From: Candidatus Zhuqueibacterota bacterium
GTDB lineage: Bacteria > Zhuqueibacterota > Zhuqueibacteria > Thermofontimicrobiales > Thermofontimicrobiaceae
DNA length: 64,000 bases
Direction: 5' to 3'
Assembly: GCA_049322915.1 (NCBI GenBank)
Contig: JBMOPW010000001.1
Location: forward strand, 105,858 to 169,857
Shown here: piece after piece, positions 9,059 through 26,865 of the stretch
Position numbering within the stretch: the first letter of the stretch is position 1
How the letters are laid out: each line of letters starts with the position of its first letter
Program-made: the position numbers and the translations under genes
Notes under the pieces: generated by a model
What the model was told of the DNA's origin: nothing
Database searches by the model: none
Seen by the model: the letters and a program-made list of their open reading frames with translations, nothing else

Positions 9059-9104
9059 CCGCCGGGCTTTTCATGCTGCCCTGCGGTTTCAGCGGCTCGT
9101 TGCA

Positions 9105-10544
9105 TTATTTAAATTTACTCATCCATCGGCCCCGTTCATCTTCCGGGCTGAATACAACCTTTACTTTTTTCTTCGTTTCCGGCGCCGGGGGTGGCACATT
9201 CCCAAGCAGCTTTTCTTCTTCGACGACCTTAATCGTGTTTTCAATATCAAAATTTTTATCCAGCAACTGGTCAAATCCGGCCGTAATCACTGTGTGCTGG
9301 TGCGATTCGAGGATGTTATTCAGCAGATCATTCAGCGGCTGGAAATTGAAATCCTGGGGCTTGCCCTGTTCCATGTAATTTCGAATGTGCTGCTCGGCAG
9401 ACGTCAATGCATTGAATACAGATTCGTCCGGGGTCTGATTGTATGAAAGTCGTTCTTTTGCAAGTTTATCCAGCAGCGTTAAACTCGGCTGGACATCTTT
9501 CACGTGAAAGCAATTGGCGGCATCGCGGAGTCCGCTGCACGACTCTTTAATGCGCATGATCGCTTCGCCCGGGGATTGCTCGTCTTTAACTTTTTGCAAC
9601 GATTGCTTCAGAAAGTCGAGATTTTCGATGGTCTCTTCCCTGAAGATGTCATTAAAAACCTGTTCTATCTCCTTTGCCTGACTTTCCCGTTGGCTTTTTT
9701 TTTGAGCCAATTGCGACAGATCAACATCGATGAGATGATTTGCCGGGCTGTCTGTTTGAACGGCGACCGGCGCTGTTTCCATCGCTTCCTCTGGCGATTC
9801 CGCGACCGCCGGCTCAGGAGTTTCGGAAAGAACTGGTTCCTGGTTCTGCATCGGCTCGGGAGCCTGACTCACCAGCTTTTTGTGATTCTCAATTTCCTCC
9901 ACCAATTTCATGAGCGAATCCAGTTCTTTAATTTCGAACTGCGGAGGCTGTTTGATTTCCTGCGGCGGGATGGTGGCTGGAATGATGTCGTCATCTGAAG
10001 TATCATCAGCTAAAAATTCCAGTTCGGCGAATTCGGCTGGCAAGGGTGGCGTCTTTTCGCTGGCCGGAGGTTTCGGCTCGTCGGCTGATTGAATGGGCGT
10101 CTTGTCGGGCATGATCTCCACAGCCTGTGACGGATGCATAGTTTGCGTGATCTCGCGAATGAGTTTTTCTTCTTCAACGTCGTTATCGATTCGCACCATC
10201 TGTCGGATGGCTTTCAAAGCGATGTGAACCCGAAGTCCAATATCTTCGGGCATCGAATTCTGCTCATGAGTGAAATTTGCCATGGCCGAAGCCAGATTAA
10301 ATGCCAGTGATTCAATACCGGGATAGCCGTACACCATAGCCAGATCTTCCATGTTCTCGGCGCATTCCAGAATAGCGCCCACCATAGCGCCATCCAGTTC
10401 CTGAACATTTTGTTCCGGTATCAACTGCTCGATACTTTTTAAATTGCTCTCAATTTCCTCAAGGCAGTAGGCGTTGAATTCTCTCCGTTGAGTTTCGGTT
10501 TTCCCATCACGATCGTTCATATTCATCATCCGACTCATTTTCAT
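9105..10544 (-). CDS. Uncharacterised protein with two Hpt/CheA-P1-like helical domains (His absent) and an acidic Pro-rich linker
   Basis: N-domain YCLEEIESNL...CAENMEDLAMVYGYPGIESLA; C-domain IFREETIENL...IKESCSGLRDAANCFH; both fit the F.EE..E.L...H.LKG.A...G spacing without His. Confidence 0.7.
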   Translation of the reverse strand: MKMSRMMNMNDRDGKTETQRREFNAYCLEEIESNLKSIEQLIPEQNVQELDGAMVGAILECAENMEDLAMVYGYPGIESLAFNLASAMANFTHEQNSMPEDIGLRVHIALKAIRQMVRIDNDVEEEKLIREITQTMHPSQAVEIMPDKTPIQSADEPKPPASEKTPPLPAEFAELEFLADDTSDDDIIPATIPPQEIKQPPQFEIKELDSLMKLVEEIENHKKLVSQAPEPMQNQEPVLSETPEPAVAESPEEAMETAPVAVQTDSPANHLIDVDLSQLAQKKSQRESQAKEIEQVFNDIFREETIENLDFLKQSLQKVKDEQSPGEAIMRIKESCSGLRDAANCFHVKDVQPSLTLLDKLAKERLSYNQTPDESVFNALTSAEQHIRNYMEQGKPQDFNFQPLNDLLNNILESHQHTVITAGFDQLLDKNFDIENTIKVVEEEKLLGNVPPPAPETKKKVKVVFSPEDERGRWMSKFK

Positions 10545-10641
10545 TTTATTCTAATTCACTCCATGTTACATCACCATAGGTGGAACACAGCTCCAGCCAT
10601 AAATATTTCTCGACGAAAACCATTTTCGATGAGCCATGATT

Positions 10642-10992
10642 TCATGCAAATTTGCTACGAAACATAAAATAGACCGCTCCTACCAGACAGAGTCCGGCCC
10701 ACAGGTAATCCAGCTTGAGCGGTTCTTTCAGATAGAAAACTGAGAAAGGCACAAATACAGATAGTGTGATCACTTCCTGGATTATTTTTAACTGGCCAAC
10801 TGTAAGCATTCCATAACCAATCCGATTGGCCGGCACCTGAAGCAAATACTCCAGCAGCGCAATCCCCCAACTGACAATCGCCGCGATGATCCACGGTTTA
10901 TTGTTCAATTCTTTGAGATGAGCGTACCAGGCAAATGTCATGAAAAAATTACTACAAATCAAGAGCGATACAGAGATCAAAATAGGATTCAT
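10642..10992 (-). CDS. DMT superfamily small membrane protein (DUF486-like)
   Basis: SNFFMTFAWYAHLK, SWGIALLEYLLQVPANRIG, QLKIIQEVITL; 4 TM. Confidence 0.88.
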   Translation of the reverse strand: MNPILISVSLLICSNFFMTFAWYAHLKELNNKPWIIAAIVSWGIALLEYLLQVPANRIGYGMLTVGQLKIIQEVITLSVFVPFSVFYLKEPLKLDYLWAGLCLVGAVYFMFRSKFA

Positions 10993-11041
10993 ATTCGATT
11001 TCAGGCGCCAATAGTTTTATCGTCAGTTTTGTGTGATAACC

Positions 11042-12787
11042 TTAATTTAAATCCATTCTTAATTTCGTCTTCAGGTCCTCCTGTTCAATATGCAATTCGT
11101 CCTTCATACCTTCTGCAGCATTCGGTTGAAACAGATTCTTCAGACTAAGCTTATTTTTTTTTAGCGAACCATTACGCTGATGGTCAATCAGAAGGGTCAA
11201 TTTTTCAATGATGTACTGAGCGTCGGACAGCGCATTGTTGTCATTGACCAGCATGCCCGCCAGGATCGATGGAATATTATGAAAGTGAGGCATAAAATCT
11301 TCAGTAACGATCACTTTCTTCAGCAAAATTTCTTCGAATAGTCCACCGATGAACATTGCGAACTCTTCGATTTTATCATGCGAATAGAGCTGCGCTGAAT
11401 TTTGAAGAGCAATACAGGCATTCTTGATGTTGCGGAATAGCTTGGGATCCTGATTCATCAGATTAATATGATTCAGTGATTCCTTCAGGATATTCAAGTC
11501 GCCGGCTATCTCTTCCGAAAACATCTGGTCGAACACCCGATGAGCCGATTGCTTTGGCTTTTCCTGCTCTCTGGGTTCCTCATCACGAATCACCTTCCTG
11601 TCATTGCCGGATTTTTCCTCTTTTTGAAGTATCATTTCCGGGGCCGGTTTGACAATCTTATCTTCCTTCACCGGGGTGACGAATGTTTTGCTTTCCTTGA
11701 TATCGAAAAAAGGGTTGGCATCCACCTTTTTTTTCTCCATCGGCGCTGGTTGCGGTTTTGCTGTTCGTAATTCCCCAGCCGGACCTTTGGCTTTTGTGCC
11801 GGTCGCAATGAGCAGGACGCGAATTTTATCCTCCATGCCCGGATCAATGCGCGCGCCCCAGATAATGCGGGCGTTGGGATCCAGCTTCTCTGCAATGGAT
11901 ATCATCACGCTGCGGGCCTCGCGGATTGACATGGATTCGTTGCCTGTGATATTGATTAACGCACTTTGCGCGCCGGTTATATCCACATCGAGCAGGGGAT
12001 TATCGATCGCTTTAGCGACGGCGTCCTGAGCTTTGTTTTCTGTATTGCTTTCGCCAATCCCAATCATCGCTGTATCGCCATCCTTCATGATCGATTTGAC
12101 GTCCGCGAAATCGAGGTTCACCAGACCTTTCTCAGTGACCAGTTCGGTAATGCCTTTCACGGCATTGGTTAAAATTTCATCGGCGACTTTGAACGCGGCA
12201 TTCAGCGGCAGGTCCGGAACCATATCCAGCAACCGGTCATTCTGGACGACAATGACGGTGTCAGAATGTTCCCGCAGTTTGGCTAAACCGGCCTTTGCAT
12301 TTTCGCGGCGCATCACACCCTCTTCGGTGAAGGGCAGCGTGATGACAGAAATTGTGAGCGCATTCAAACTGCGCGCAATTTCCGCGACGACGGGCGCAGA
12401 ACCGGTACCTGTCCCTCCGCCGAGACCGCACGTGATGAATACCATGTCGCAACCTTCCAGCAGTTCGCGAATCTCCGCCTCGTTCTCCCGTGCTGCGCTT
12501 TCACCAATTTGAGGATTACTGCCCGCGCCCAATCCGTTCGAAAGGTTTTTTCCGATGAGGATTTTATGTTCAGCCTTTGTGAACAGCAGATCCTGGGCGT
12601 CTGTATTGACCGCTACAGTTTCTACCCCTTTAATACCGACTTCGGTCAACCGAGTAATCGTATTATTTCCCGCGCCGCCCGCACCAATCACCTTGATTTT
12701 CGTGCGATGCGTTTTGAGTAAACTTTCCAGTTCTTCATCTTTTGTTTTCAAAGTGAACTCCTTTGTGGATATTTTCTCCCTCGACAT
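11042..12787 (-). CDS. ftsZ: FtsZ-family GTPase (archaeal FtsZ1-like core) fused to a C-terminal Hpt-like domain
   Basis: GAGGAGNN, NTDAQ, GLGAG.NP, GGGTGTG tubulin signature, NLDFADV T7 loop; ~250-aa C-terminal extension. Confidence 0.93.
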   Translation of the reverse strand: MSREKISTKEFTLKTKDEELESLLKTHRTKIKVIGAGGAGNNTITRLTEVGIKGVETVAVNTDAQDLLFTKAEHKILIGKNLSNGLGAGSNPQIGESAARENEAEIRELLEGCDMVFITCGLGGGTGTGSAPVVAEIARSLNALTISVITLPFTEEGVMRRENAKAGLAKLREHSDTVIVVQNDRLLDMVPDLPLNAAFKVADEILTNAVKGITELVTEKGLVNLDFADVKSIMKDGDTAMIGIGESNTENKAQDAVAKAIDNPLLDVDITGAQSALINITGNESMSIREARSVMISIAEKLDPNARIIWGARIDPGMEDKIRVLLIATGTKAKGPAGELRTAKPQPAPMEKKKVDANPFFDIKESKTFVTPVKEDKIVKPAPEMILQKEEKSGNDRKVIRDEEPREQEKPKQSAHRVFDQMFSEEIAGDLNILKESLNHINLMNQDPKLFRNIKNACIALQNSAQLYSHDKIEEFAMFIGGLFEEILLKKVIVTEDFMPHFHNIPSILAGMLVNDNNALSDAQYIIEKLTLLIDHQRNGSLKKNKLSLKNLFQPNAAEGMKDELHIEQEDLKTKLRMDLN

Positions 12788-12892
12788 TGTTATTTTCCTT
12801 CAATTAGCAGTAAAACTGCACTTTATATTACCCGCACCATATCAGGTTTGGAGAAACTAATTTAGTGAAATGGCTGAGGAAATCAGCATCGA

Positions 12893-14677
12893 TCAGATTT
12901 TTGATGACCTCACTCCCGGCGAACCAAACGTCGTATTGAAATATTCTTTCAGTGTTGTCAGTATGGAAATGAAGTGGACCTTGTGTTCCGCATTATTGCG
13001 GTCAAAAATCTTAAGCAGCGTCATTCCGCTTTCCATGCTCTCCAGGATATTTCCCGGCAATTTGATGTTTCGCTTGTTGGTCTGAAAACAAATGGATTCC
13101 ATCAACTCCGGCAAGAACGCCATTTTCTCAAGTCCAAATTTCTGAGCCAATTGATTCAGAGACGCGCTGGCCAATTCAATATCCTCCAGTGATGCTTGAT
13201 ATTTTTTACCCTGGGTCAATTGAGCCAGGGCATTCAGAATGATCTTGTGGTACAAACTGGCTTCCTTATGGAAGCGATCCAGTGGATTCCTGACTGACTC
13301 ATCGATTGGTTTCTCGTCAGATTTTTCAGCATCGGACTGGCCTGCCTCAATTGTGTCTCCTGCTCCGGTGTGAATCACCTCGGCTGAGGCGATTTCGTCA
13401 TGACTCGTTTTCTGAATGAACGGTTTTGCCGGGGGAATGATTTCCTGTAATAGAATCAATAATTCTTCATCTTCCTCCCCGGGTAACTTAAATTCCAATA
13501 GGTCCTTATCAATAATATCGTCATCTTCTGGAACAATTGGAGTCACAGGCGTAACTTTATTGACTTTTTCTTTATTATCGATCTCCGCGGGAACCGGCGC
13601 CACCGACTCCGATGGTGACAATTTCTCTGCATCCGGAATCGCCTGTTCCTTTTTGGAAATCAGTTCCTGAGTTTCTTTTTCAAGAGGGGCAATCAACACA
13701 TTCGAACCAGCGTGTGACAGATAACTATCGAATTTTTGTAGCTGGTCCTCGATATGCTCGACGTGCTGATGATGGAAGACCATTTTTTCAATAGTGGTTT
13801 TCGCATCGAAAATTAATCGAATGGCCTCCTGGTCTGGGGTTTGGTTCGCTTCGAGATTTTTTTTCACAATCTTCACCGCGCGATCCGCAATTGCTTCGAT
13901 CTCGTCATGTCCGTGATACATGGAGACTTCTTTGATATTATGGAAGCTTTCGAAACACATTTTTAAATCGGACCGATGCGTGAGAAACCAGGATGGCTGC
14001 GATGTCATCCTGGACAGTGGTTTGAGCAGCTCGAAAATCTCTTCTTCGAAAAATCCCTGAAGAATATTGTTGTTTAATACTGCGTTGTTTTTACGCGCTG
14101 GTGCGACTGTACTTTCTGGTTGACTTTGCGGATCGATTTTGGCCGCTGACTCTGCTTTGACCGTGGACCGATAGACTTTCAATTGAGGGGCCGCTGATGG
14201 CACACTGTCCGTGTCTTTGGTGGCTGATTTTCGGAGCATCGAGCGCAAATTAGTTTTGATATTCAGATATTTTTCCAAAGTCGCCCTATCGTTGGCTTCT
14301 GTCCCTACAATCCGCACTAATTTCGACATGAAAAACTGGGCATAATTTTTAATCGCCTCTTTCAATTGCGATTGATCCAGGCTTTTCAAGTCCAATTTTA
14401 GAAGATGGTTTTCGAGATCCGAGTACAACGTGGAGAAGCTCTGAATCTGAGTGATTTCTTTCAACTCAAGCGCCGGCTGCGGGGACTCAACCAGATAGTG
14501 AATGAAATTGGAAATGACGCGAAAAGAGGCCTCATCAATGGTTTTCAATTCCAGGGTCTTGTTTTGCAAAAAGCTTGACACACAAAAGTAGAAGTAGCTC
14601 TTGGGATGAAAAAACCGATTTATTAATTCCAGATAGAAGTGGTTCAATGTCTCAAATTTAGTCTGCATACAAACCAA
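12893..14677 (-). CDS. Uncharacterised protein with two Hpt-like domains (first keeps His)
   Basis: FFEEEIFELL...FESFHNIKEVSMYHGHDEIEAIA; second RFHKEA...ELASASLNQLAQKFGLEKM; start uncertain (TTG 14677 or ATG 14668). Confidence 0.7.
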   Translation of the reverse strand: MVCMQTKFETLNHFYLELINRFFHPKSYFYFCVSSFLQNKTLELKTIDEASFRVISNFIHYLVESPQPALELKEITQIQSFSTLYSDLENHLLKLDLKSLDQSQLKEAIKNYAQFFMSKLVRIVGTEANDRATLEKYLNIKTNLRSMLRKSATKDTDSVPSAAPQLKVYRSTVKAESAAKIDPQSQPESTVAPARKNNAVLNNNILQGFFEEEIFELLKPLSRMTSQPSWFLTHRSDLKMCFESFHNIKEVSMYHGHDEIEAIADRAVKIVKKNLEANQTPDQEAIRLIFDAKTTIEKMVFHHQHVEHIEDQLQKFDSYLSHAGSNVLIAPLEKETQELISKKEQAIPDAEKLSPSESVAPVPAEIDNKEKVNKVTPVTPIVPEDDDIIDKDLLEFKLPGEEDEELLILLQEIIPPAKPFIQKTSHDEIASAEVIHTGAGDTIEAGQSDAEKSDEKPIDESVRNPLDRFHKEASLYHKIILNALAQLTQGKKYQASLEDIELASASLNQLAQKFGLEKMAFLPELMESICFQTNKRNIKLPGNILESMESGMTLLKIFDRNNAEHKVHFISILTTLKEYFNTTFGSPGVRSSKI

Positions 14678-14786
14678 TACCGAGTAATGACGTGGAGAAA
14701 CCTGATAGTGTGTGTTTTTTCATTGGGCAAAAAGTCAAATGTTCAGCTTTGAATTTTTTTTTAGCCGGATAATTCCCTGGATAATA

Positions 14787-15239
14787 CTCAGGCAACGCAG
14801 CGAAAGGCTGGATTGCCGGTCTCGTGTACACAGGCTCAATCCTTATTTAGCGTAATTTCAGCTTTGCGCTAACGGTTACAGTGATGAGGGTTTATTTGTG
14901 GCCGATGTTTCGAATGATGATGCCCACATCGCTGCGGAGAATTCCAGGTATCCATGGCTCCATTGACCGACTTATTCAAACAGCGACGCGCGGAGTTCAC
15001 TGTCATTTCTGTTCAGTCGGTGCAATTCAGACGGGCAAAGCGGAGACCGTTATCAGAAAATGGAAGATGTGCTAAAGATGGTCAACCCTGGCGGCAATGC
15101 AGTCTTAATTTATCTGGGGAATCGCCGCCGAAGCCCTCGGAAATGCCCCGGATGACCCATTGCCCGTCTGCATCTCGGACGTTCCGTGAAAGGCCATTTG
15201 GTCGAAGCGTTGCCGGTCGCGTTTCAGATGCGATTGGCA
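14787..15239 (+). ncRNA. Candidate structured RNA in a 600-nt intergenic gap (family not recognised)
   Basis: Multiple stems with G-U pairs on the + strand, incl. 15028-15038/15160-15170 (11 bp perfect) and 15211-15239 (12 bp). Confidence 0.3.
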
Positions 15240-15276
15240 CACGTATCGTTTCAATGAGCGAACGGAGTGATCAGTG

Positions 15277-15993
15277 CTACAAGATGGCAACTTGTTGTTG
15301 AAATTTTTCATAAAGCTTCAGCACGGCCGGGACGTAGCTGCGCGTTTCTTCCCACAGCAAGGCCCAGTCGGTCTTATTGTTGCGGTTCTTCAACCACAGC
15401 GCCGCGCGTTTTTCGCCTCCATTATAAGCTGCCAGCCCGCCGTCGATTTCATAAAGGTGAATTAAATTAGACAGATAGCGGCAACCCATTCGAATGTTCA
15501 GGATCGGATTGAATAAAATCTCCTCCGGCGTTGTCCATTCAATGCCTTCCTGAATTGCCAGCAGTTCGCCGGTTTTTGGCATGATCTGCATCAGACCCAA
15601 CGCACCAACAGGCGAGACAACATCTTTTCGCCAGGTCAGTGCGCTCTCATGGGTGATGGTCGCGCAAATGAGATCGACGTTGAGATTGTCGTATTTCAGG
15701 CTCATCTTAAAAATCTCATCGGCGATTTCATATTTCTCATCCGGAGTGATCGTTCGATTGTACTGGTCAATTATTTTAATAATTCTCTGGATTTTATATT
15801 GCCGAACACTCTCGATGTTCAATGCATTTTGCACAGACGCCAGGTGATTTTCAATGAAAGCCATTTGCTTCGTTGTATCTTCTGTAGAAGTAAGCTTGTG
15901 AGAAAAACTAACGGTTGAAATGAATACCGCAAATATCAAAGTAATTAATAACATGGATTTTAATGAACTCAACCCTCTTTTGTCTCGCTTCAT
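15277..15993 (-). CDS. Membrane-anchored lytic transglycosylase (SLT/GH23)
   Basis: ITHESA (catalytic Glu), GALGLMQI, LAAYNGG, ETRSYV; N-terminal TM; GGGAGG RBS before ATG 15993 (ORF extends to 16035). Confidence 0.9.
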   Translation of the reverse strand: MKRDKRGLSSLKSMLLITLIFAVFISTVSFSHKLTSTEDTTKQMAFIENHLASVQNALNIESVRQYKIQRIIKIIDQYNRTITPDEKYEIADEIFKMSLKYDNLNVDLICATITHESALTWRKDVVSPVGALGLMQIMPKTGELLAIQEGIEWTTPEEILFNPILNIRMGCRYLSNLIHLYEIDGGLAAYNGGEKRAALWLKNRNNKTDWALLWEETRSYVPAVLKLYEKFQQQVAIL

Positions 15994-16397
15994 CCTGACA
16001 ACCTCCCACATTCGTAATAGACTTAATGTTGACATGTGCTTGTTCTGGTGGACACCCCACCTTTTTTCAGTTACAAATTACTACCAGCCGTTCGAATTGA
16101 TTTCTACGATAACAGAAAATGTTTTCACTGGAAGTCTATGTAACAAATATAGAGCCAAACTAATCGAAATGAATTTGTTGTTCACCCTCAGTCGGATTCT
16201 CTAAACGTGATTCTCCTATTTTAATCTGTTATAATAAAAAAAGTTATCGGCCAAGATGAAACTGATCAAAACGGGCGATAACTCTATACCAATGAAATGC
16301 GATGTAAATGCGTTGTTTTTCGATAGAAAGAATATAGTGATTTGAAAACGAGTTATGAGGTTTTTAGTTTTGTTAAATTAATGAAATTAATAAGATG

Positions 16398-17216
16398 CTA
16401 TTGAAAACTCTCGGCCATCACCATCTCTTTTTTGGCTAATGATGATTCACTTGTCCCGTTCTGATTCAATAATTCAGTCGCAAGTTCCATGTAGCTATTA
16501 GCGCCTTTGCATGTTTTATCAATCAACAACACTGGTTTGCCGAAATAGGGCACTTCTGCAAGCCGAACATTGCGGGGAATGATAGTTTCAAAGACAAGGC
16601 CTTTGAGCGTATATTTGATTTTATCCATGACGCGCCGGGAAAGATTGTTTCGCAGATCGACCATGGTGAGTAGAAATCCCCGATATTGTAATGAGGGATT
16701 GTAATCGTTTTTAACCATTCGGGTGAGCTTTAGTAATTTCCCCAGAGATTTCAGCGCGTAAAATTCGCACTGGATGGGAACGATGATTGAATCCGAAGCC
16801 ACCAGAGAATTAAAGGTCAGCTTGCCCAATGACGGTGGGCAATCCATTACGATGAAATCGTACCTGGTCTTTAGTTTGCTCAAGGGAGATTTTAAAAATG
16901 ACGTGCGGTCCTGGTGGATCTGTTCGAGTTTGTCTTCATCTTCAGCCCAGAAATTCGAAGGGATGAAATCGAAATTGTCCATAAGAGTGGGATGGATAAT
17001 TTCGTCGAGCTCTTTCGATCCGGTGATCAATTCATAGACGCCAGCTTTGATATCATATTTCCCATAGCCAAAACTTGTTGCAACATGTCCCTGCGGATCC
17101 AGGTCAATGAGCAACGTCTTATGGCCCAATGCAGTGAGACTGGCGCAGAGGTTTACAGCGGTCGTTGTTTTGCCAACTCCCCCTTTTTGGCTAACGATTG
17201 AAATAATCTCGCTCAT
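16398..17216 (-). CDS. parA: ParA/Soj family ATPase (no adjacent parB)
   Basis: Deviant Walker A QKGGVGKTTT, DLDPQG, DCPPSLG, PIQCEFYAL, IPRNVRLAE. Confidence 0.9.
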   Translation of the reverse strand: MSEIISIVSQKGGVGKTTTAVNLCASLTALGHKTLLIDLDPQGHVATSFGYGKYDIKAGVYELITGSKELDEIIHPTLMDNFDFIPSNFWAEDEDKLEQIHQDRTSFLKSPLSKLKTRYDFIVMDCPPSLGKLTFNSLVASDSIIVPIQCEFYALKSLGKLLKLTRMVKNDYNPSLQYRGFLLTMVDLRNNLSRRVMDKIKYTLKGLVFETIIPRNVRLAEVPYFGKPVLLIDKTCKGANSYMELATELLNQNGTSESSLAKKEMVMAESFQ

Positions 17217-17232
17217 ACATAGTCCCTGAAAC

Positions 17233-17928
17233 TTAAATAAATTTTCCAATATTCTGAGAACTGTATTTTTTCAGCAGCGTTCTCCAACCGCTATGAATGG
17301 TTTTTCGGATTGGAGTCTCTGAAAGGGTTGTATCGTAATAGCCATCGTTCCATTTGAGCACATTTGATAGTGCCTTCTCGCCTTCTAGCGTCCCGACCTG
17401 GGCATGGATTATTTCACCCGCCCTGAAGTGAATTACACCATTCTCTGTACCGTTTGAAATACTCAAATTACCATTGAATTTTTTCTGGCAATTCCGGATG
17501 ATGATGTCCGCCAGATTCAATTCGACCAGTCGACTCTTATAGTTATCGGTAGATTTCTGGACAGCTTGATGGATTATTTTTTTCAATTCGGCGATCTCGA
17601 ATGGCTTTTCAATGAAGTAAACCGAATTTGGAAATGCAAGTCTGTCTCTGAGCTCGATACTGTCCGAAGCTGTCATAATGATGACTTTCATTTGAGAATG
17701 ATACTTTTTCACATAATCCAGAAGTATCAATCCGTCGATTCCTGGCATACGAATATCTGTTATGAGCAAATCCAGGGAGAAGCGCCTGATCACTTCAAGC
17801 GCTTCCTCCCCGGAATTGACACACATTATTTCGTACTGCTCGTTCTCTTTCCTGAGACTTCGTGCTATACTCCACGTCAGATCCTCTTCATCATCCACGA
17901 TGAGTATTCGTTTCGGATCGGAAGTCAT
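17233..17928 (-). CDS. Response regulator: REC + DUF4388 (PatA-N-like) domain
   Basis: ILIVDDE, TDIRMP, MTA, EKPF; C-terminal L.DII......G.L.I....G.I.F..GEIIHA....GEKAL....W..G. Confidence 0.85.
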   Translation of the reverse strand: MTSDPKRILIVDDEEDLTWSIARSLRKENEQYEIMCVNSGEEALEVIRRFSLDLLITDIRMPGIDGLILLDYVKKYHSQMKVIIMTASDSIELRDRLAFPNSVYFIEKPFEIAELKKIIHQAVQKSTDNYKSRLVELNLADIIIRNCQKKFNGNLSISNGTENGVIHFRAGEIIHAQVGTLEGEKALSNVLKWNDGYYDTTLSETPIRKTIHSGWRTLLKKYSSQNIGKFI

Positions 17929-17989
17929 TGATGTTTCCCCTGTTAGATGCATGAACGATAATGTGTTAGTAGTACTTCAATGCCACCAG

Positions 17990-18006
17990 CGCAAAAAGTA
18001 TGCCAG
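17990..18006 (-). promoter_or_regulatory. Sigma54 promoter for REC-DUF4388/parA
   Basis: Minus strand CTGGCATACTTTTTGCG, near-consensus -24/-12. Confidence 0.75.
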
Positions 18007-18405
18007 TGGACGGCGTCTTTCGGGCCAGGTGTCCATTGATGAAAATTCAGACCGATGAGAGGAGATAGAATTTTAATTTTTAGTGAATTAGGGTGGTGAT
18101 TATTCATTGGAAAATTTATCGTGTCTGGAAGAGGGCAACGCCTGTTTGCACAATTCGGTAATTACAAATTCCGACTGACCGATAATTGACCAAACTCGAT
18201 TTGATTTAAGTCGGTGAGTACTTTGAATCGCTATCCATTTGTTTTATTGTGCTGAAATCATGTTTTGAGAAATCATTTATATGAATAACAAACAATTAGG
18301 CTGAAAATGGCAGGGGAGAAGGACAGCGACATCGCTGAACGTGTGGATATTCCGGGGCATGGAGCAGTGAGGCAATCAGCAATTACATCATTGAAAACGG
18401 GTGAT

Positions 18406-18464
18406 AAATAAAAACGACCGGACAGAAATGAACAATGAATGCATTCATTTCAGTCCCGGTCGTT
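18406..18464 (-). terminator. Long hairpin terminator after the sigma54 activator
   Basis: AACGACCGG...CCGGTCGTT with inner stem; T-tract on the minus strand. Confidence 0.65.
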
Positions 18465-18484
18465 GAAATTGTAATAGAAAAAAA

Positions 18485-19852
18485 TTAATTTATACCGTAC
18501 TGTTTCAATTTTTCTCTGAGCGTCGAGCGAGAGATATTCAATACGCGCGCCGCTTTGGATTTATTGCCATCAAAGCGTTCGAGCACTTCGATAATGTGTT
18601 TTCGTTCGATGTCCTGAAGCGAGAGATTGTCATTGGACTGGGGGCTGGCCGGCACGACTTTTATCTCCTTGGGCTGAGAATTGTATAATTCCCGAGGCAG
18701 ATGTTCAACGTCAATGATATTGGTGCTGCATAGAATGGATGCCCGTTCCATTACGTTCTTGAGCTCGCGCACATTGCCGGGCCATTCATAATTCAACAGC
18801 AGGTTCTCCGCTTCCGGGGTAAACCCGGTGATGCGCTTCGAAAATTCTTCATTATAAAGCTCGACAAACAATTTGGCCATGGGAATGATATCGTCCATTC
18901 GCTCGCGGAGCAGGGGCAAGTTAATGACCATGACTTTCAGGCGATAATACAGATCTTCCCGAAACGATCCGTTGTCCACGCACTCTTTCAAATCCTGATT
19001 CGTGGCAGCGATGATGCGGACGTCGATTTTGATATCGGAAGTCCCGCCGATTCTGCGAAAGCTCTGCGTTTCGAGCACCCGAAGCAGTTTCGGCTGGAGC
19101 GACAGTTTCATGCTGGAGATTTCATCCAAAAAAAGCGTGCCTCCATGGGCTAATTCAAACACGCCTTTCTTCACATTCTTGGCGTCAGTGAACGCGCCTT
19201 TTTCATAGCCGAATAATTCACTCTCCATGAGATTTTCCGGGATGGCGCTGCAATTGATGGGTATTATCGGCTTCGTGGCTCTGGCGCTCCAGTTGTGGAT
19301 AGCCTTGGCCACCAATTCCTTACCAGTGCCGCTTTCGCCCTGAATAAGAACCGATGTCTTGGGAGTCTTTGCCACCATTTTGATCATATCTTTCACAACT
19401 TTGATCTTGTTGCTTTTACCGAAAATGGCTGTATCCGGGTAGCGCTTCCGCTCGGCTAATTTTAATTGAGAAACTTCGCGTTTCAATTCATTGATTTTCA
19501 ATGTCTTTTGTGTGACCAGCCGAAGCTCGTTGTGATCGCAAGGCTTCATGAGATAGTCGTACGCGCCTTTTCTCATGGCATCAACTGCGGAAAGGACTGT
19601 GCCATGAGCCGTCATCATAATGATGATCAAATCCGGATCGATGTCCAGCGCTTGGGTGAGCACTTCCATCCCGTCCATTTTGGGCAAGCGAATATCCAGC
19701 AACACAAGATCGAATATTTCTTGTTTCAATAATTCAAGCGCCGCCTCACCGGAGCTTGCAGTGCTTACTTCGTAGCCTTCCTTTTGAAGACACTTTGAAT
19801 AACCTAATGTTAAATCTTCCTCATCATCAACTATGAGAATACGCTCGTTCAT
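18485..19852 (-). CDS. NtrC-family sigma54-dependent response regulator (REC-AAA+-HTH)
   Basis: GESGTGKE, ESELFG, GAFTDA, FLDEI, FREDLYYRL, WPGNVREL, Fis-type HTH. Confidence 0.95.
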   Translation of the reverse strand: MNERILIVDDEEDLTLGYSKCLQKEGYEVSTASSGEAALELLKQEIFDLVLLDIRLPKMDGMEVLTQALDIDPDLIIIMMTAHGTVLSAVDAMRKGAYDYLMKPCDHNELRLVTQKTLKINELKREVSQLKLAERKRYPDTAIFGKSNKIKVVKDMIKMVAKTPKTSVLIQGESGTGKELVAKAIHNWSARATKPIIPINCSAIPENLMESELFGYEKGAFTDAKNVKKGVFELAHGGTLFLDEISSMKLSLQPKLLRVLETQSFRRIGGTSDIKIDVRIIAATNQDLKECVDNGSFREDLYYRLKVMVINLPLLRERMDDIIPMAKLFVELYNEEFSKRITGFTPEAENLLLNYEWPGNVRELKNVMERASILCSTNIIDVEHLPRELYNSQPKEIKVVPASPQSNDNLSLQDIERKHIIEVLERFDGNKSKAARVLNISRSTLREKLKQYGIN

Positions 19853-19858
19853 TAATAC

Positions 19859-21925
19859 CTACTCCTCCGTTGGTAAGAGCAACGTAAACGTTGTCCCTTT
19901 TTCCATGATACTGTCAACGCGAATTTCACCTTTATGTTCTTCTACTATCCTATAGACAATCGAAAGCCCAAGTCCGGTTCCTTGCGGTTTGAGTGTGAAA
20001 AATGGATCAAATATTTTTCCCAAATCGTCAGGTTTGATCCCGGCCCCGGTGTCGCGAACCGTCACTTCGACGTAACGTGATTCCCTGTTCAAATTAGAGA
20101 ATCCCTTTTTCCGACGATCTCTCGCGTAAATGATGGTTTCAACCGTTCGTGCTTTCAGCTCCAATCGGCCACCGTGTGGCATTGCTTCAATTGCATTCAA
20201 AAACAGATTGATAAACACCTGTTGAATCTGCTGATAATCCACAAACACCTTCATGAGATTCGATTGAAATTCTTTGGTGTAGGTGATTTTATTCTTTTTG
20301 ATGCGATCGTCCAGCAGAATATTGACTTCCTGAATGATGTCCTCCAGTTTTTGGAGCTTGCGAATCGGCTGTCGTGGCCGCGCATAGGAAAAGAGTGTGC
20401 GAAGAAGCTCATCAAGACGATCGACTTGCCGGACAATTCGCATCAGATATTCCTGGCGCGGGTCGCTTTTTTCAATTTCTTCTTCGAGGGTCTGGGCCAT
20501 AGTCTTGATGCCGGCAAGGGGATTCCTCACCTCGTGCGCAATGCCGGATGCCAATACGCCCATGGAGGCCAGGCGATCCATCCGCACAACCTCCATCTGC
20601 ATTTGCTTGATCTGTGAAATATCCCGGAATGAGATGATGGTGCCGACTTTCAGGTTATGATTATCAATGCGCGGTGTGATGGTAAATCCCACAAAGACCT
20701 TCGTCTTATCTTTTCGGGTCAATTCAATTTCTCGGTTGAGCAGCGATTGATCCTGCGAAATACTATCCGGCAACAGTTTCCGGCTCAGTTCCCCCAAAAT
20801 CTCATCCAGATTTTTTCCCACTATTTCTTCGGCTTTGTAACCCAGCACCTCCTCAGCGCCGTTGTTGAACGATGTTATTTTGCGTTCCAGGTCAATGGTC
20901 AGCAGGCCGGCGCCCATACTCTGGATGATACTCTCATTGAAATTCTTCAACTCCGTGATTTCTTGCTCCAGCTCTTTGCGCTGGGTAATATCGCGGGCAA
21001 TTCCAACCACACCCATCACTTCGCCCTTTTCAAAGATGGGGTTGATGTTCATCGACAAAAACAGGGGAATACCGGTCTGGCAAATCAGACGAATTTCGAA
21101 AATCCGCGCTTTCCCTTTTAATGTCAGATTGAAGTTGTTGCGCGCCTCCACGCGATCTTCCGGGGCAACCAGATCGAAAAAGCTGCGGCCAATCCAATCC
21201 TCCCTGGCAAATCCGGCAAGCGTAATCAGCCGGCGATTGATGAAAATGAAATCACCTTTCAGATTCAATGTGTAAATTAAATCGTTGGCATTCTCAATGA
21301 GGTCCTGGTACTTGTATTCGGTGCGCCGAATTTTCTGTTCCAGCTCTTTATTTTTCTGCCGAACCTGGTGAAGTATGAACACATTGTCGATGACATTCAT
21401 CAACTCCCGATGCCCGAACGGTTTGACAAGAAACGAAGACAATCCCATTTCAAACAGCGCTGTGCGATCAATATTGTACTCGGTCTGGGCGGTAATCATG
21501 ATCACCGGTGTGTCTGAAAGATGCTTGTACCGCTGACTGGTGACGAGCCGTTGAAATACTTCTGCCCCGCTCATTGACGGCATCATGTAATCGAGCAAAA
21601 TCAGATCTGGCTTGTAATTGAGAATGAAGTCCAGGCCTTCCTGTCCATTGGAAGCGTAAAAGAAATTGTACCCGGCCGAAACGATGATCTTTCTTCCGAT
21701 TTCCACCATGTCCGGATCGTCATCGACCAGCAAAATTGATTTTTTGTTGGTCGCTTTCAAACTGACAGTTGCATGGGTGATAGCCTGGCTGCTTCGGTAA
21801 ATGTGGTCGCTGATTAAATTTTCCAGGTCCTTGATGCTTTTCTTGTCTTTGATGGTAAACAGTTCCTTGGATTTATGCTTGACCGGCAGTAAATCCCCAT
21901 CATTTGTTTTATCATTGTTCACCAT
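19859..21925 (-). CDS. Cytoplasmic hybrid histidine kinase REC-PAS-PAS-HisKA-HATPase
   Basis: LLVDDD/LDYMMP/KPF, two PAS domains ending RDIT and RDIS, AHEVRNPL, NAIEAM, DTGAGI, GTGLGL. Confidence 0.93.
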   Translation of the reverse strand: MVNNDKTNDGDLLPVKHKSKELFTIKDKKSIKDLENLISDHIYRSSQAITHATVSLKATNKKSILLVDDDPDMVEIGRKIIVSAGYNFFYASNGQEGLDFILNYKPDLILLDYMMPSMSGAEVFQRLVTSQRYKHLSDTPVIMITAQTEYNIDRTALFEMGLSSFLVKPFGHRELMNVIDNVFILHQVRQKNKELEQKIRRTEYKYQDLIENANDLIYTLNLKGDFIFINRRLITLAGFAREDWIGRSFFDLVAPEDRVEARNNFNLTLKGKARIFEIRLICQTGIPLFLSMNINPIFEKGEVMGVVGIARDITQRKELEQEITELKNFNESIIQSMGAGLLTIDLERKITSFNNGAEEVLGYKAEEIVGKNLDEILGELSRKLLPDSISQDQSLLNREIELTRKDKTKVFVGFTITPRIDNHNLKVGTIISFRDISQIKQMQMEVVRMDRLASMGVLASGIAHEVRNPLAGIKTMAQTLEEEIEKSDPRQEYLMRIVRQVDRLDELLRTLFSYARPRQPIRKLQKLEDIIQEVNILLDDRIKKNKITYTKEFQSNLMKVFVDYQQIQQVFINLFLNAIEAMPHGGRLELKARTVETIIYARDRRKKGFSNLNRESRYVEVTVRDTGAGIKPDDLGKIFDPFFTLKPQGTGLGLSIVYRIVEEHKGEIRVDSIMEKGTTFTLLLPTEE

Positions 21926-22149
21926 GACATTATACTCTAACTTAGGACAAAAAAGTTATCGCGCGTTTTTTCACACGCATTGTTTGATTCCTCAACAATG
22001 AATGAAGTGCGCTACCATTCAACCATCAGCCATCCTGGGGATGGCCTTATATTTAGCTTTTTCCACTAAGGAACCGCGCAGGCAATTCCTGTGTATAGTA
22101 AGTCCGATTCAGTTTAATTCTGCGAAGCCAGTGAAAGCGGGCATTTGCC

Positions 22150-23652
22150 TCATTCGATGATGTCCACTTCCTCAAAAGATTTCGAATATTCATTTTGAAT
22201 TTCCCGTTCGCTTGGCTTGGGAATCGAAAAGGAAAATCTTGAGCCTTTATTCAACTCGCTCTCCACCCAGATGGCGCCATCATGCAACTCAACGATTTCT
22301 TTGACCAGGGATAATCCCAATCCCGAGCCGGTGACATCCTGGATGTTTTCGTTGTCCGTAACGCGGTAAAATTTATTAAAAATTTTATCGATCGATTTTT
22401 GTCCGATTCCATACCCCTGATCGATGACGCTCACCACCTGCTCCCGGGCGTTATCTTCCACAGATATTATAATTTTCTTCCCATCAGGACTGTATTTGAC
22501 GGCGTTGGAGAAAAGGTTTAGTACCACCTCGCCCATCATTTCCTGGTCGACCCACACTGTCGACAGATCCTCCGGAATTTCGATTTGCAGATCCATCCCT
22601 TTCTGCTCCGCCAGGTACATGTTCATTTCGAGGATGTTCTCAATGACATGCTTCATATTCACATAGGTTTTATTGACCTGGCTTTTGCCTGATTCGATCC
22701 GTGAAATGTCTAAAAATTTATTGATGAGATCGCCCAAACGATTGGATTCTTTGAGAATGATTTCGGCATACTCTTTGGACTGGTCCTGGGATACGCCCGA
22801 ATCCAACAGCAGTTCACTGAACCCGGCTATGGACGTGAGAGGCGAGCGCAATTCATGGGCGACCATAGAGACCAGATCCGTTTTCATTTTGTCAATTTCT
22901 TTTTCCTTGGTAACGTCTCTGAATACGGTCACAATGCCGATCAACTCATGCTTGGTGTTGATGACCTGAGCTGCCTTTGCCTGAAGCACGATCGATTTTT
23001 TTCTGTCCGCCGGCTTAATTTCAATTTCGACTGATGCATTCTCCTGGTCGTTTCCGTTGATCACATCATTTATCAGCGAGAGCAATTTCTGTTCATAAAT
23101 CAGTTTCTCGATAGGCTGATCGATCACTTCCATTTCGGTCAGGCCAAACCAGGATTCTGCAATGGAGTTCAACACGAGGATTTTGTGGTTCGGATCAGTG
23201 ACAATGACGCCGTCGGCAATGTTCTTTAATATAGTTTCCGTTTTATTTTTCTCGGTGATAATTTTATTGAGATTCATCTCGTTCAACCGACGCAGTTCCG
23301 TCGTCATGAAATTGAAAATCCTGGCCAGTCTTCCTAATTCATCATCGGAACTGCTTTTCACTTTATGCGTAAAATTGCCCCGCGCAATTTCTGTGGCGCT
23401 GCGGGTGAATTGGCGGATTGGCTCGTTGATTCGCTTGGAAAATGAAAGCGCACTCAGCGCCGCCAGAATGATAGTGAGTAAAATGAGAGAAGCGCAAAAC
23501 AGAACGGTTGAATTCTGTTGAATCAGCGCGGCGTGAGCGCTTGTCTTCAGAAAGAAGACTAAACAGATTATCAGGGGGAAAAGCGAAATACCCAATAAGA
23601 CAAAAAATAATTTTCTGGATAAAGATTGTTTCTCTAAAATTTTGAGTGGCAT
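22150..23652 (-). CDS. Membrane histidine kinase 2TM-HAMP-PAS-HisKA-HATPase (WalK-like architecture, very short extracytoplasmic loop)
   Basis: HAMP DELGRLA..FN, DGVIVTD, AHELRSPL, NAVKYS, DQGYGI, GSGLGL. Confidence 0.93.
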   Translation of the reverse strand: MPLKILEKQSLSRKLFFVLLGISLFPLIICLVFFLKTSAHAALIQQNSTVLFCASLILLTIILAALSALSFSKRINEPIRQFTRSATEIARGNFTHKVKSSSDDELGRLARIFNFMTTELRRLNEMNLNKIITEKNKTETILKNIADGVIVTDPNHKILVLNSIAESWFGLTEMEVIDQPIEKLIYEQKLLSLINDVINGNDQENASVEIEIKPADRKKSIVLQAKAAQVINTKHELIGIVTVFRDVTKEKEIDKMKTDLVSMVAHELRSPLTSIAGFSELLLDSGVSQDQSKEYAEIILKESNRLGDLINKFLDISRIESGKSQVNKTYVNMKHVIENILEMNMYLAEQKGMDLQIEIPEDLSTVWVDQEMMGEVVLNLFSNAVKYSPDGKKIIISVEDNAREQVVSVIDQGYGIGQKSIDKIFNKFYRVTDNENIQDVTGSGLGLSLVKEIVELHDGAIWVESELNKGSRFSFSIPKPSEREIQNEYSKSFEEVDIIE

Positions 23653-23677
23653 GGCATGATTCCTTGTCAGCAGAAAA

Positions 23678-24628
23678 TTATTCTAATACAACCTGGTTGC
23701 GCCCATTTTTCTTCGCTCGATAAAGCCGTTTATCCGCCACGGTCACCAGAGTGTCCGGCATGGTTGCGTCTTCGGGAAACGTCGCAACGCCCATGCTGAT
23801 GGTTAATTTCCCGTTGGGTTGGGTGTCTTCAAAGTTAAATCTATGCTGTCCAATTAGATTTCTAATTTTATCAGCGACAATTCCGGCGGCGTCCTTTCGG
23901 GTTTCGACGAGAATTAATGCAAATTCTTCGCCGCCGTATCGAGCAGCCACATCAATTTTCCGAATATTGCTATGCAACAGGGACGCGATTTTCTTCAACA
24001 CCAGGTCCCCGGCCGGATGGCCATGTGTATCATTATAATTCTTGAAATAATCGATATCGATCATAGCAATGGAGACATCGATGTTATGCCTTTTGGCCCG
24101 GGTGATTTCGTGGAATAGCTGTTCTTTGAAATAGCGGTAATTGTACAGCCCGGTCAGCCCATCTGTGATGGCCAATTGCCTGAGTTTTTCCTGGGCAAGT
24201 TCCAATTCTTTTATTTTTAATTCCAGTTCATCGTGCAGGTGCTTGATACGAAGCAGCGATTTGACCCGCGCCAATAGCTCCAGTTTATTGAAAGGCTTGC
24301 ACAGGAAATCATCCGCTCCGGATTCAATGCCTTTCAGCTTGTCCTCCAGTTCATTCAGGGCTGTCACCATGATGACCGGAATAAACCTGGTTTTGTCGCT
24401 ATTTTTCATGCGGCGGCAAACCTGATAGCCGTTCATTTTCGGCATCATAATGTCGAGCAGAATTAGATCTGGAGATTCCTCTTCTACTCGTTGTAAAGCT
24501 TCAACTCCATCTTGCGCTAAAATAACTTTGTAACCTGCTGCCTCGAGATATGTTTTCTGTAATTTCCTATTCAGAGGTATATCATCGACAACCAACACAG
24601 TTGAGCGCTCAGGACTCTTGTTAATCAT
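23678..24628 (-). CDS. Response-regulator diguanylate cyclase (REC-GGDEF)
   Basis: VVDD/LDIMMP/KP; DGLTGLYN, DIDYFK.YND, RKID I-site, RYGGEEF. Confidence 0.95.
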   Translation of the reverse strand: MINKSPERSTVLVVDDIPLNRKLQKTYLEAAGYKVILAQDGVEALQRVEEESPDLILLDIMMPKMNGYQVCRRMKNSDKTRFIPVIMVTALNELEDKLKGIESGADDFLCKPFNKLELLARVKSLLRIKHLHDELELKIKELELAQEKLRQLAITDGLTGLYNYRYFKEQLFHEITRAKRHNIDVSIAMIDIDYFKNYNDTHGHPAGDLVLKKIASLLHSNIRKIDVAARYGGEEFALILVETRKDAAGIVADKIRNLIGQHRFNFEDTQPNGKLTISMGVATFPEDATMPDTLVTVADKRLYRAKKNGRNQVVLE

Positions 24629-24719
24629 ACGGTTCAGATCTCCTGGTCGTTGTCAGTCAAAGATGACTATCATTTATAATATTGTATCAGAGTCGTTGAA
24701 CAATATTATATCCAGTCCG

Positions 24720-26171: not shown

Positions 26172-26270
26172 GCGATCACTCCTAAATATAATCGTTGAGA
26201 TTGCTCACACATTTTTCAAATAATTTTTTCGTGTTGTTTACTAATAAATCATATCTTAAGTCATTTTTTA

Positions 26271-26299
26271 AAAATACGATATAATTTATAAATTGTCAA
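26271..26299 (-). promoter_or_regulatory. Sigma70 promoter for gcvPB
   Basis: TTGACA-N17-TATTTT on the minus strand. Confidence 0.6.
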
Positions 26300-26708: not shown

Positions 26709-26737
26709 TTGCATTCTAATGAAAAACGCTCTATATT
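26709..26737 (+). promoter_or_regulatory. Putative sigma70 promoter
   Basis: TTGCAT-N17-TATATT. Confidence 0.45.
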
Positions 26738-26865
26738 TATCCCGCTATTCAAAACAGGGATATCTTAAATGGCAGGTTGATAAAGCAGCTTTTTCAATTT
26801 CTTTCGGTTACTTCGAGTTTTAGATCGGCAGCGAGATGAACAACACACGTAGGAGGAACCTGATT

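Follow-up and report, generated by a model that had tools for sequence, protein, structure and literature searches.

FtsZ::P1 is an FtsZ protein with an additional C-terminal helical domain, encoded by a gene cluster of a Candidatus Zhuqueibacterota bacterium (KSB1-type). The DNA analysed, called here the window, is a stretch of 64,000 nt (assembly GCA_049322915.1, contig JBMOPW010000001.1, positions 105,858–169,857 of the forward strand), in which the cluster comprises eleven consecutive open reading frames (ORFs) on the minus strand at positions 9105–24628. FtsZ::P1 is a second, non-housekeeping FtsZ of its genome. Judged by its nearest relatives, its GTPase core is of the archaeal type, and its tail is homologous to the P1 (Hpt) domain of the chemotaxis kinase CheA without having a conserved acceptor histidine. 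The interpretation that we prefer, and consider probable with modest confidence, is that the cluster forms a signal-induced accessory cytoskeletal module around this second FtsZ, in which the dead Hpt domains would act as docking sites. An earlier note on the window, made from its sequence, had described the cluster as a phosphorelay-coupled cytoskeletal system. The eleven genes that it listed were recovered by ORF calling and their domains by Pfam, the Hpt-like ones by profiles and predicted fold; the phosphorelay did not survive the comparison of orthologues given below.

A second FtsZ outside the dcw cluster

The core of FtsZ::P1 passes the NCBIfam FtsZ equivalog model TIGR00065 with 420.5 bits (cut-off 295.2) and contains the Pfam domains Tubulin (residues 30–190, 171.7 bits) and FtsZ_C (residues 239–331, 109 bits). 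The GTPase motifs GAGGAGNN, GGGTGTG, and NLDFAD are intact. The GTPase core (residues ~17–345) is followed by a linker, a P1-like five-helix domain (~415–545), a disordered stretch, and a short conserved C-terminal peptide.

The genome assembly (6.25 Mb, 45 contigs, 96.3% complete) has two Tubulin-family matches above the cut-off. Besides FtsZ::P1, an FtsZ of 413 aa was found on contig C11, where its gene adjoins those of FtsA, FtsQ, FtsW, MraY, a Mur ligase, and a penicillin-binding protein, i.e., the division and cell wall (dcw) cluster. Apart from FtsZ::P1 itself, Pfam detected no fts or mur genes in the cluster of the window. The view of the earlier note that this FtsZ lies outside a dcw context and is not the sole copy is thereby borne out. 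Both paralogues were also present in 5/5 other KSB1 genomes searched with dcw FtsZ, i.e., in six genomes in all.

FtsZ is normally tethered and regulated via a short C-terminal peptide. The dcw FtsZ of this genome ends in a bacterial-type peptide (...ELPTFLRRRMEM), and peptides of the P-x-F/Y-L-R type were found in all seven KSB1 dcw FtsZ proteins (7/7) and not in FtsZ::P1. The sampled archaeal FtsZ1 proteins had the C-termini ...FEIDFLK or ...LGIEF.... The FtsZ::P1 proteins of the window's family have a disordered acidic stretch and then ...DLKTKLRMDLN, those of several other families end in ...(D/E)AVKY(F/I)DKL(F/L), and nine proteins from other classes end shortly after the P1 domain. FtsZ::P1 has a P1-like domain in the place where the archaeal or bacterial C-terminal anchor peptide would be.

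In one locus (L021, 9977–11692, genome G013), FtsZ::P1 occupies two frames, one of 386 aa and one of 185 aa for the tail, owing to either a frameshift or an assembly error.

Archaeal affinity of the GTPase core

Relatives of the core were collected by a tblastn scan of contigs from one genome per species, which was seeded from peptide patterns and is hence biased. The best matches outside KSB1 were archaeal (Methanomicrobiales, a Woesearchaeota metagenome-assembled genome (MAG), and a Micrarchaeota MAG) with 56–63% identity over residues ~17–356, and bacterial FtsZ proteins matched at 38–51% in the same scan. When the ORFs were re-extracted and compared, FtsZ::P1 had 56–63% identity to the nearer archaeal paralogue, 43–50% to the other archaeal paralogue, 42–51% to bacterial FtsZ, and 43–49% to KSB1 dcw FtsZ. 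The FtsZ::P1 proteins of other KSB1 classes were 48–53% identical to that of the window. The gene for the nearer archaeal paralogue follows a tRNA deacylase gene and precedes secE, spt5/nusG, and the genes for L11, L1, and L10; the gene for the other comes after an RHH_1 gene. In the part of PMC9871819 that was available, ftsZ1 is told by its protein-synthesis gene context and ftsZ2 follows an RHH_1 gene. By this criterion, the nearer archaeal paralogue is FtsZ1.

A quick phylogenetic reconstruction was made with IQ-TREE (LG+C20+F+G4 with posterior mean site frequencies, PMSF; 78 rows, 354 columns), without duplicates, a truncated row, and some of the closely related rows of FtsZ::P1. All FtsZ::P1 rows formed one group (Shimodaira–Hasegawa-like approximate likelihood ratio test, SH-aLRT, 99). 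A split with an SH-aLRT of 100 separated archaeal FtsZ together with FtsZ::P1 from all 29 bacterial and 7 KSB1 dcw rows. When both KSB1 paralogues were forced into one clade, the resulting tree was rejected by the approximately unbiased test (difference in log-likelihood 168.8, p-AU 1.4e-9), and so was a duplication within KSB1 as the origin of FtsZ::P1. According to the identities and the tree, the core of FtsZ::P1 is of the archaeal type and branches on the archaeal side of the tree. This affinity goes beyond the earlier note, as do the sigma-54 promoter and the passenger status of one cluster gene described below.

One further genome (G091) has two dcw-type FtsZ matches (L146 and L148). One of these clusters in the tree with a Nitrospinota FtsZ and with that of an unclassified bacterial MAG, which points to contamination or to an additional paralogue.

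P1-like domains without the acceptor histidine

A profile was built from an alignment of 26 orthologous FtsZ tails. Against the Protein Data Bank (PDB), it matched CheA P1 chains (8c5v_C, 2lp4, 1i5n, 2ld6, 1tqg, and 6s1k) at E-values from 8.4e-8 to 4.3e-7, and it also matched the synthetic repeat protein BRIC1 (E 1.1e-16). The AlphaFold2 (AF2) model of the tail has five helices, with a mean predicted local distance difference test (pLDDT) of 80.8 and values >90 over residues ~10–130. CheA P1 was also the best PDB match of this model in Foldseek (1i5n, template modelling (TM) score 0.78–0.81; 8c5v_C, root mean square deviation 2.0 Å). Among 1.84 billion representative sequences, the tail profile had 3323 matches at E ≤ 1e-3, 330 at E ≤ 1e-10, and 24 at E ≤ 1e-30. 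Fifteen matches picked from this library comprised 4 FtsZ fusions and 11 proteins with Pfam Hpt; several of the latter are CheA/ChpA-like, with up to nine Hpt domains, and rank below the FtsZ fusions.

Domains of the same kind were found in two proteins of the cluster without a Pfam family, P2 and P3. The AF2 model of P2 has three folded parts (residues 10–153, 197–322, and 465–584), the second and third of which are P1-like. With a profile of 23 aligned orthologues, the middle domain of P2 matched CheA P1 in the PDB at E 1.4e-8 and the C-terminal domain at E 4.1e-7; in Foldseek, P2 matched CheA P1 with TM scores of 0.70–0.79. P3 matched the FtsZ tail (E 1e-5) and P2 (E 1e-3) by BLASTP and contains two P1-like domains, with an invariant LAM..G..G.E in the alignment of 11 orthologues. 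On the basis of profiles, BLASTP, and predicted fold, the FtsZ tail and the four domains of P2 and P3 are homologues of CheA P1/Hpt, in agreement with the Hpt-like nature that the earlier note had assigned to these helical domains.

Pfam Hpt (PF01627) gave no match at E ≤ 10 for the FtsZ tail, P2, or P3. At the column of the phosphoacceptor, His was found in 0/26 FtsZ tails of the window's class, which have I, S, N, T, A, V, G, E, M, or Q there, and in 0/12 tails of other groups (Lys in nine and Ser in three). The corresponding counts were 1/23 for the middle domain of P2, the one being the window's own P2, 0/23 for the C-terminal domain of P2, 1/11 for the N-terminal domain of P3, and 0/7 for its C-terminal domain. 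The residue at this column thus varies freely among the P1-like domains. A different His, within the motif AMIHG[YF], is common in the middle domain of P2 and the N-terminal domain of P3. Since the acceptor His is not conserved, a phosphorelay through these domains, as claimed in the earlier note, is not supported, and we regard them as probable dead (pseudo-)Hpt domains.

The remaining parts of P2 and P3 also have conserved features. In most of the 23 P2 orthologues, an acidic motif, F-x-LPGE(D/E)DEEL-x-x-L-I-x-E-I (residues ~398–413), is present in a disordered linker, where AF2 models it as a short helix; the motif may serve as a binding peptide. Between the P1-like domains of P3, F-x-I-x-E is invariant within a conserved F-x-I-x-E-x-D/N, and the protein closes with a basic/aromatic end (GRWMSKFK in the window, LKGKLRKIFGK in locus L114), which, we assume, resembles the membrane-targeting ends of MinD or FtsA. 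The helical N-terminal domain of P2 (residues ~10–153) had no clear fold by Foldseek. Its assignment to FimL, suggested by Atlas feature clusters (nearest FimL_2nd, 0.88), was not confirmed, as Pfam FimL_2nd and FimL_C matched 0/23 orthologues at E ≤ 0.1.

A predicted sigma-54 promoter before the FtsZ operon

A sigma-54-type −24/−12 element (TGGCAT-N5-TTGCG) is located 53 nt before the start of the REC-DUF4388 ORF (Table 1). It comes after the gene for an NtrC-type activator, whose REC, AAA+ (Sigma54_activat), and HTH_8 domains all score well over their cut-offs. The terminator-like hairpin directly behind the activator gene had a minimum free energy of −25.7 kcal/mol (z −5.6), and 0/200 shuffled sequences were equally stable. 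The genome contains rpoN.

Conservation of the element was assessed by a fixed rule: GG and GC doublets fixed and not more than two other mismatches to TGGCAC-N5-TTGCA, in the 300 nt preceding the orthologous REC gene. Not counted were loci L097 and L098, where a different protein gave the best match, and L017, L106, and L107, where a REC gene is missing. The rule held in 18/21 loci of the window's class, against a background of 76 sites in 995,836 nt of loci, i.e., 0.023 per 300 nt. In a second set of loci, it held in 5/12 (for loci of families f17 and f18, 3/3). A window-wide scan for the sigma-54 pattern with two mismatches was not enriched (25 found, 35.7 expected), so the case for this element is made by its position and conservation. 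The numbers of sigma-70 promoter-like sites (33; shuffled sequences, 26.3 ± 4.5) and of terminator-like sites (17; shuffled sequences, 16.7 ± 5.2) did not clearly exceed the shuffled level.

These data show a conserved predicted sigma-54 promoter at the head of the FtsZ operon, after a cognate-looking activator. The two-component link that they support would be transcriptional, via this promoter; in the form of a phosphorelay, the link drawn in the earlier note does not stand.

Conservation across the phylum

Of 61 related genomes, 43 have the FtsZ tail (E ≤ 1e-3). With the tail profile at E ≤ 1e-8, it was found in 105 of the 167 genomes of the phylum, a count that includes a few weak matches in CheA-sized frames of ~700 aa and one unpublished genome (G168). 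At the latter threshold, no match was obtained in families f4 (0/4), f7 (0/8), and f12 (0/14).

For synteny, the proteins of the window were compared by tblastn with 38 distinct loci (L101, which duplicates L018, was not counted), several of which end at contig ends or at the 10-kb flank. The neighbourhood on which the earlier note had built its proposal proved to be conserved in relatives for the REC-PAS kinase, the activator, the REC gene, ParA, SLT, and P2 (Table 1). Nine loci of other classes (L134–L142) have a simpler, strictly syntenic arrangement of GcvP2, REC-GGDEF, HAMP kinase, REC-PAS kinase, activator, single-domain REC, and FtsZ::P1, with GcvP2 and REC-GGDEF found in 8/9 each. In nine loci of the window's class, an extra single REC gene stands beside ParA. 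As far as these loci can be compared, the constant core kept across the phylum is formed by the sensory genes, the activator, REC, and FtsZ::P1; the window's class and families f17 and f18 have ParA, SLT, P2, and P3 in addition.

Loci L019, L021, and L108 had no ParA match and have a gap of ~0.6–0.9 kb between REC-DUF4388 and SLT. These genera may have lost ParA, or the gene may have decayed in them.

Genes and other features of the cluster

The cluster is flanked by GcvP2 upstream and by a convergent LptD gene downstream, and the upstream sensory operon starts with the REC-GGDEF gene. All features with coordinates are listed in Table 1.

Table 1. Features of the FtsZ::P1 cluster in order of transcription, with the occurrence of orthologues in related loci
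Feature	Position (strand)	Basis and remarks	Related loci with orthologue
REC-GGDEF response regulator	23678–24628 (−)	Pfam Response_reg 112.5 bits, GGDEF 164.3 bits; GGEEF at residue 232	
HAMP-PAS-HisKA-HATPase histidine kinase	22150–23652 (−)	Pfam	14/38; many loci stop before the gene
Hybrid REC-PAS-PAS-HisKA-HATPase histidine kinase	19859–21925 (−)	Pfam; H-box HEVRNP at residue 464	28/38; 42–90% identity
NtrC-type sigma-54 activator, REC-Sigma54_activat-HTH_8	18485–19852 (−)	Pfam 236.3 bits; Walker A at residue 172	29/38
Terminator-like hairpin, then U-run	18413–18464 (−)	Directly 3' of the activator gene	
Sigma-54-type −24/−12 element	17990–18005 (−)	TGGCAT-N5-TTGCG	
REC-DUF4388 (PATAN-type) response regulator	17233–17952 (−)	Pfam Response_reg 84.1 bits, DUF4388 35.1 bits	33/38 (full REC-DUF4388 in 21, REC-only gene at the same place in 12)
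Orphan Soj/ParA-type ATPase	16398–17249 (−)	Pfam AAA_31 178.6 bits	23/38
SLT lytic transglycosylase	15277–16035 (−)	Pfam SLT 70.3 bits	24/38
SLT-P2 spacer	14678–15276	~600 nt	
P2, 594 aa	12893–14677 (−)	No Pfam family; likely start ATG at 14668	26/38
P2 acidic motif	13439–13486 (−)	Residues ~398–413	
FtsZ::P1, 581 aa	11042–12787 (−)	Tubulin, FtsZ_C, and a tail of ~170 aa without Pfam family	
DMT_6 (DUF486) membrane protein	10642–10992 (−)	Pfam 157.4 bits	0/38
P3, 479 aa	9105–10544 (−)	No Pfam family	13/38; weakly conserved, likely an undercount
P3 basic C-terminal end and inter-domain motif	9108–9140 and 9900–9938 (−)		

In the REC-DUF4388 protein, REC precedes DUF4388 (PF14332, gathering threshold 25 bits). 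Its receiver is intact, with D20, D21, D66, and K116 invariant in 18 aligned orthologues.

ParA has a deviant Walker A motif (KGGVGKTT). The closest PDB chain was 8ray_B (E 1.2e-66), which derives, according to its partly available source, from a ParA-ParB study; Soj matched at E 4.7e-56. No ParB gene is adjacent to the cluster ParA, and the protein is below every NCBIfam equivalog cut-off, including those of MipZ and MinD. A separate parA adjoins parB on contig C32, and its product is 45% identical to the cluster ParA, which is therefore an orphan second copy beside the chromosomal parAB.

SLT (PF01464, cut-off 21.3 bits) starts with a hydrophobic segment, LLITLIFAVFISTVSF, which is an N-terminal anchor or signal. 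It has the motif THES, which we take to be the E-S motif containing the catalytic Glu. SLT-type enzymes participate in septal wall remodelling.

The SLT-P2 spacer occurs once in the genome; in the same-genus locus L016, it measures only ~107 nt. Its small ORFs had no Pfam match, and Rfam gave 0 matches at E ≤ 0.1 over positions 8500–27000. The spacer could house an internal promoter or the remnant of a lost gene.

The DMT gene, which the earlier note had counted as a member of the cluster, separates FtsZ::P1 and P3 in this genome alone. It was absent by tblastn from all 38 related loci, including L016, which has an 80-nt gap at this place. By its distribution, this gene is a passenger outside the conserved module.

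Pfam searches of the cluster ORFs found no che, pilus, or gliding genes, and the only CheA/CheW cluster of the genome is on contig C44. Positions 1–2000 of the window had a G+C content of 0.369, compared with 0.45–0.53 across the remaining window.

Proposed role and alternative explanations

In the signal-induced module that we propose, the kinases would phosphorylate the activator, the sigma-54 promoter would then fire, and the module would be made only upon signal. A REC protein that can be phosphorylated (REC-DUF4388 in the window, single-domain REC in the other classes) would dock on the dead P1 domains, by analogy with the docking of CheY to CheA P1 as in 3kyi, and would link the state of the kinases to the way in which the FtsZ polymer assembles, is anchored, or is placed. 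Precedents are the proposed scaffold role of non-phosphorylatable Hpt-type domains and the dependence of PilG localisation on the hubs FimV and FimL (PMC12632253), as well as the binding of PATAN-REC proteins to a motor ATPase (bioRxiv 10.1101/2021.06.11.447907). P2 and P3 may serve as multivalent adaptors, the latter perhaps in contact with the membrane by its basic C-terminus. The orphan ParA would position the structure, and SLT would open the peptidoglycan at that site. Such a module would likely serve a conditional, specialised septation or cell-shape event and not routine division. A more specific version holds that REC docks in its phosphorylated form on the P1 domains of FtsZ::P1, P2, and P3 and so switches polymer assembly, membrane attachment, or placement; the dead domains would then be phospho-dependent docking sites of a signal-gated second machine for division or morphogenesis acquired from archaea. 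We put this version forward tentatively, as one possibility that may well prove wrong. A complex prediction for the REC domain (residues 9–135) and the FtsZ tail (1–135), made without controls, scored 0.25 against a mark of 0.32. A search of sequencing runs turned up DNA runs and none of RNA.

Several observations weigh against the signal-induced module or parts of it. Gaps of 362 and ~600 nt within the proposed operon leave space for internal promoters. The promoter rule fails in 3/21 loci of the window's class (L104, L110, and L113) and holds in only 2/9 loci of other classes; the variant TGGTA[TC]-N5-TTGC is found 38–85 nt before the REC gene in 9/9 of the latter, as a looser pattern that was set after viewing the sequences. 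The L1 loop of the activator, which contacts sigma-54, reads GAFTDA instead of the canonical GAFTGA; among 23 activator orthologues, 16 have GAFTDA, two have GAFTGA, and five have no motif match. By tblastn, ParA, SLT, P2, and P3 were found in none of the nine loci of other classes. The FtsZ::P1 proteins of family f10 (L106 and L107; 720–782 aa) stand in a different gene context, with no kinase, activator, ParA, SLT, or P2 within 10 kb. FtsZ::P1 therefore does not depend on the extended module. As to the archaeal descent, a tree in which the archaeal rows were held as one clade was not rejected (p-AU 0.615), so nesting within archaeal FtsZ1 is not demonstrated and an old bacterial paralogue is possible; the tree had only 78 rows, and its archaeal and bacterial rows came from the pattern-biased scan.

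FtsZ::P1 could instead be a constitutive partner of the divisome that takes part in every division together with dcw FtsZ, like archaeal FtsZ1/FtsZ2 or the plastid pairs. The sole partners of the P1-like domains would then be P2 and P3, acting as anchors, and the signalling genes would just tune the level. This explanation would account for the presence of both paralogues in all 6 KSB1 genomes examined and for the conservation of FtsZ::P1 with intact GTPase motifs, and it agrees with a P3 end that could reach the membrane and with the septal role of SLT-type enzymes. We nevertheless find it rather unlikely, because a sigma-54 element with its own activator and kinases, found phylum-wide, is typical of conditional expression and because the core is only 43–49% identical to dcw FtsZ. 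In addition, the module is absent at E ≤ 1e-8 from families f4, f7, and f12 and is therefore dispensable for division there.

A second alternative concerns the origin of FtsZ::P1, which might be an ancient bacterial paralogue or a fast-evolving duplicate from within the phylum and not an archaeal transfer. With the archaeal rows as one clade not rejected, the branch of FtsZ::P1 may lie outside the diversity of archaea; KSB1 FtsZ::P1 has kept neither the gene context of archaeal ftsZ1 nor its C-terminal motif; and PMC9871819, in its available part, reports no notable ftsZ transfer between archaea and bacteria, although its supplementary trees could include KSB1. An origin of this kind is nonetheless unlikely in our view. 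The in-phylum duplicate conflicts with the rejected constraint tree, the identity to archaeal FtsZ1 exceeds that to any sampled bacterial FtsZ, and five non-KSB1 bacteria, including Ignavibacteria, Fibrobacteria, Rhodothermota, Bacteroidota, and Nitrospinota MAGs, had a single FtsZ each.

The cluster might also be a polarity hub, in which Hpt scaffolds, the PATAN-REC protein, and ParA organise a polar pilus, gliding, or chemosensory machine, as in the FimL/FimV/PilG or ParC/PpfA systems, and FtsZ serves as a track or landmark. According to the accessible part of PMC12632253, non-phosphorylatable Hpt-type domains (FimL, and ChpA Xpt of the Pseudomonas Pil-Chp system) are proposed as protein-binding scaffolds, and the polar localisation of the REC protein PilG depends on the hub proteins FimV and FimL. 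PATAN-REC proteins bind the pilus motor ATPase, as stated in the available portion of bioRxiv 10.1101/2021.06.11.447907. The Atlas similarity of the P2 N-terminal domain to FimL_2nd is a lead in the same direction that Pfam did not confirm, in 0/23 P2 orthologues. A hub of this type is improbable, since the cluster has no pilus, gliding, or che genes, CheA/CheW being confined to contig C44, and since the module, in its simplest and most widespread form, consists only of REC and FtsZ::P1.

A true phosphorelay, in which the Hpt-like domains of FtsZ, P2, and P3 would take phosphate from the kinases and pass it to REC, FtsZ itself being phosphorylated, is very hard to reconcile with the freely varying acceptor column and the missing Pfam Hpt matches, even though the domains are true CheA P1/Hpt homologues encoded beside two kinases and four REC domains, the middle domain of the window's own P2 has a His at the acceptor position, and the AMIHG[YF] His is common, so that we consider it highly improbable.

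Significance and comparison with known systems

Our literature search found no publication on this FtsZ::P1 module and none on a fusion of FtsZ with an Hpt domain, and FtsZ does not occur in the description of Zhuqueibacterota (PMC11683472). Three traits set the second FtsZ of KSB1 apart: a tail that would serve as a docking domain, an apparent kinase/sigma-54 circuit of its own, and an archaeal-looking core. If REC does dock on the P1 domains, the module would provide a direct path from environmental sensing to a tubulin-like polymer and a clear case of pseudo-Hpt domains as adaptors. FtsZ::P1 is a candidate exception to the statement on ftsZ transfer in the available part of PMC9871819. For KSB1, which is uncultured, the module gives a handle on unknown cell-cycle or differentiation behaviour.

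The P1-like domains resemble CheA P1 (1i5n, 8c5v, 1tqg, and the CheA3-P1/CheY6 complex 3kyi) as five-helix bundles, at E 8e-8 and TM scores of 0.7–0.8, and likewise have a receiver protein adjacent. Unlike CheA P1, they have no acceptor His and no Pfam Hpt match, and they are fused to FtsZ or repeated without a kinase core. The lack of the acceptor His is shared with FimL and ChpA Xpt; here, however, no pilus genes are nearby, P2 has no Pfam FimL or Hpt match, and the partner is FtsZ.

Known ParA-like systems for the positioning of FtsZ are MinD, MipZ, and PomXYZ. The cluster is similar to them in encoding an orphan ParA/Soj-type ATPase beside FtsZ. In contrast to these systems, its ParA is nearest to chromosomal Soj/ParA, is paired with REC-DUF4388 and not with PomX/Y or MinE, and is missing from the simpler form of the module.

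With sigma-54 control by NtrB/NtrC, the module shares a kinase, a REC-AAA+-HTH activator, a GG/GC −24/−12 element before the target operon, and rpoN. The target here is a cytoskeletal operon, and the loop of the activator is GAFTDA.

Archaeal FtsZ1, encoded beside secE-nusG-rpl11-rpl1-rpl10, is the closest relative of the GTPase core and falls on the same side of the split with an SH-aLRT of 100. FtsZ::P1 differs from it in having a bacterial host and a signalling gene context; where archaeal FtsZ1 has the C-terminal motif (F/L)xI(D/E)F(L/I), FtsZ::P1 has a linker, a P1-like domain, and a new end peptide.

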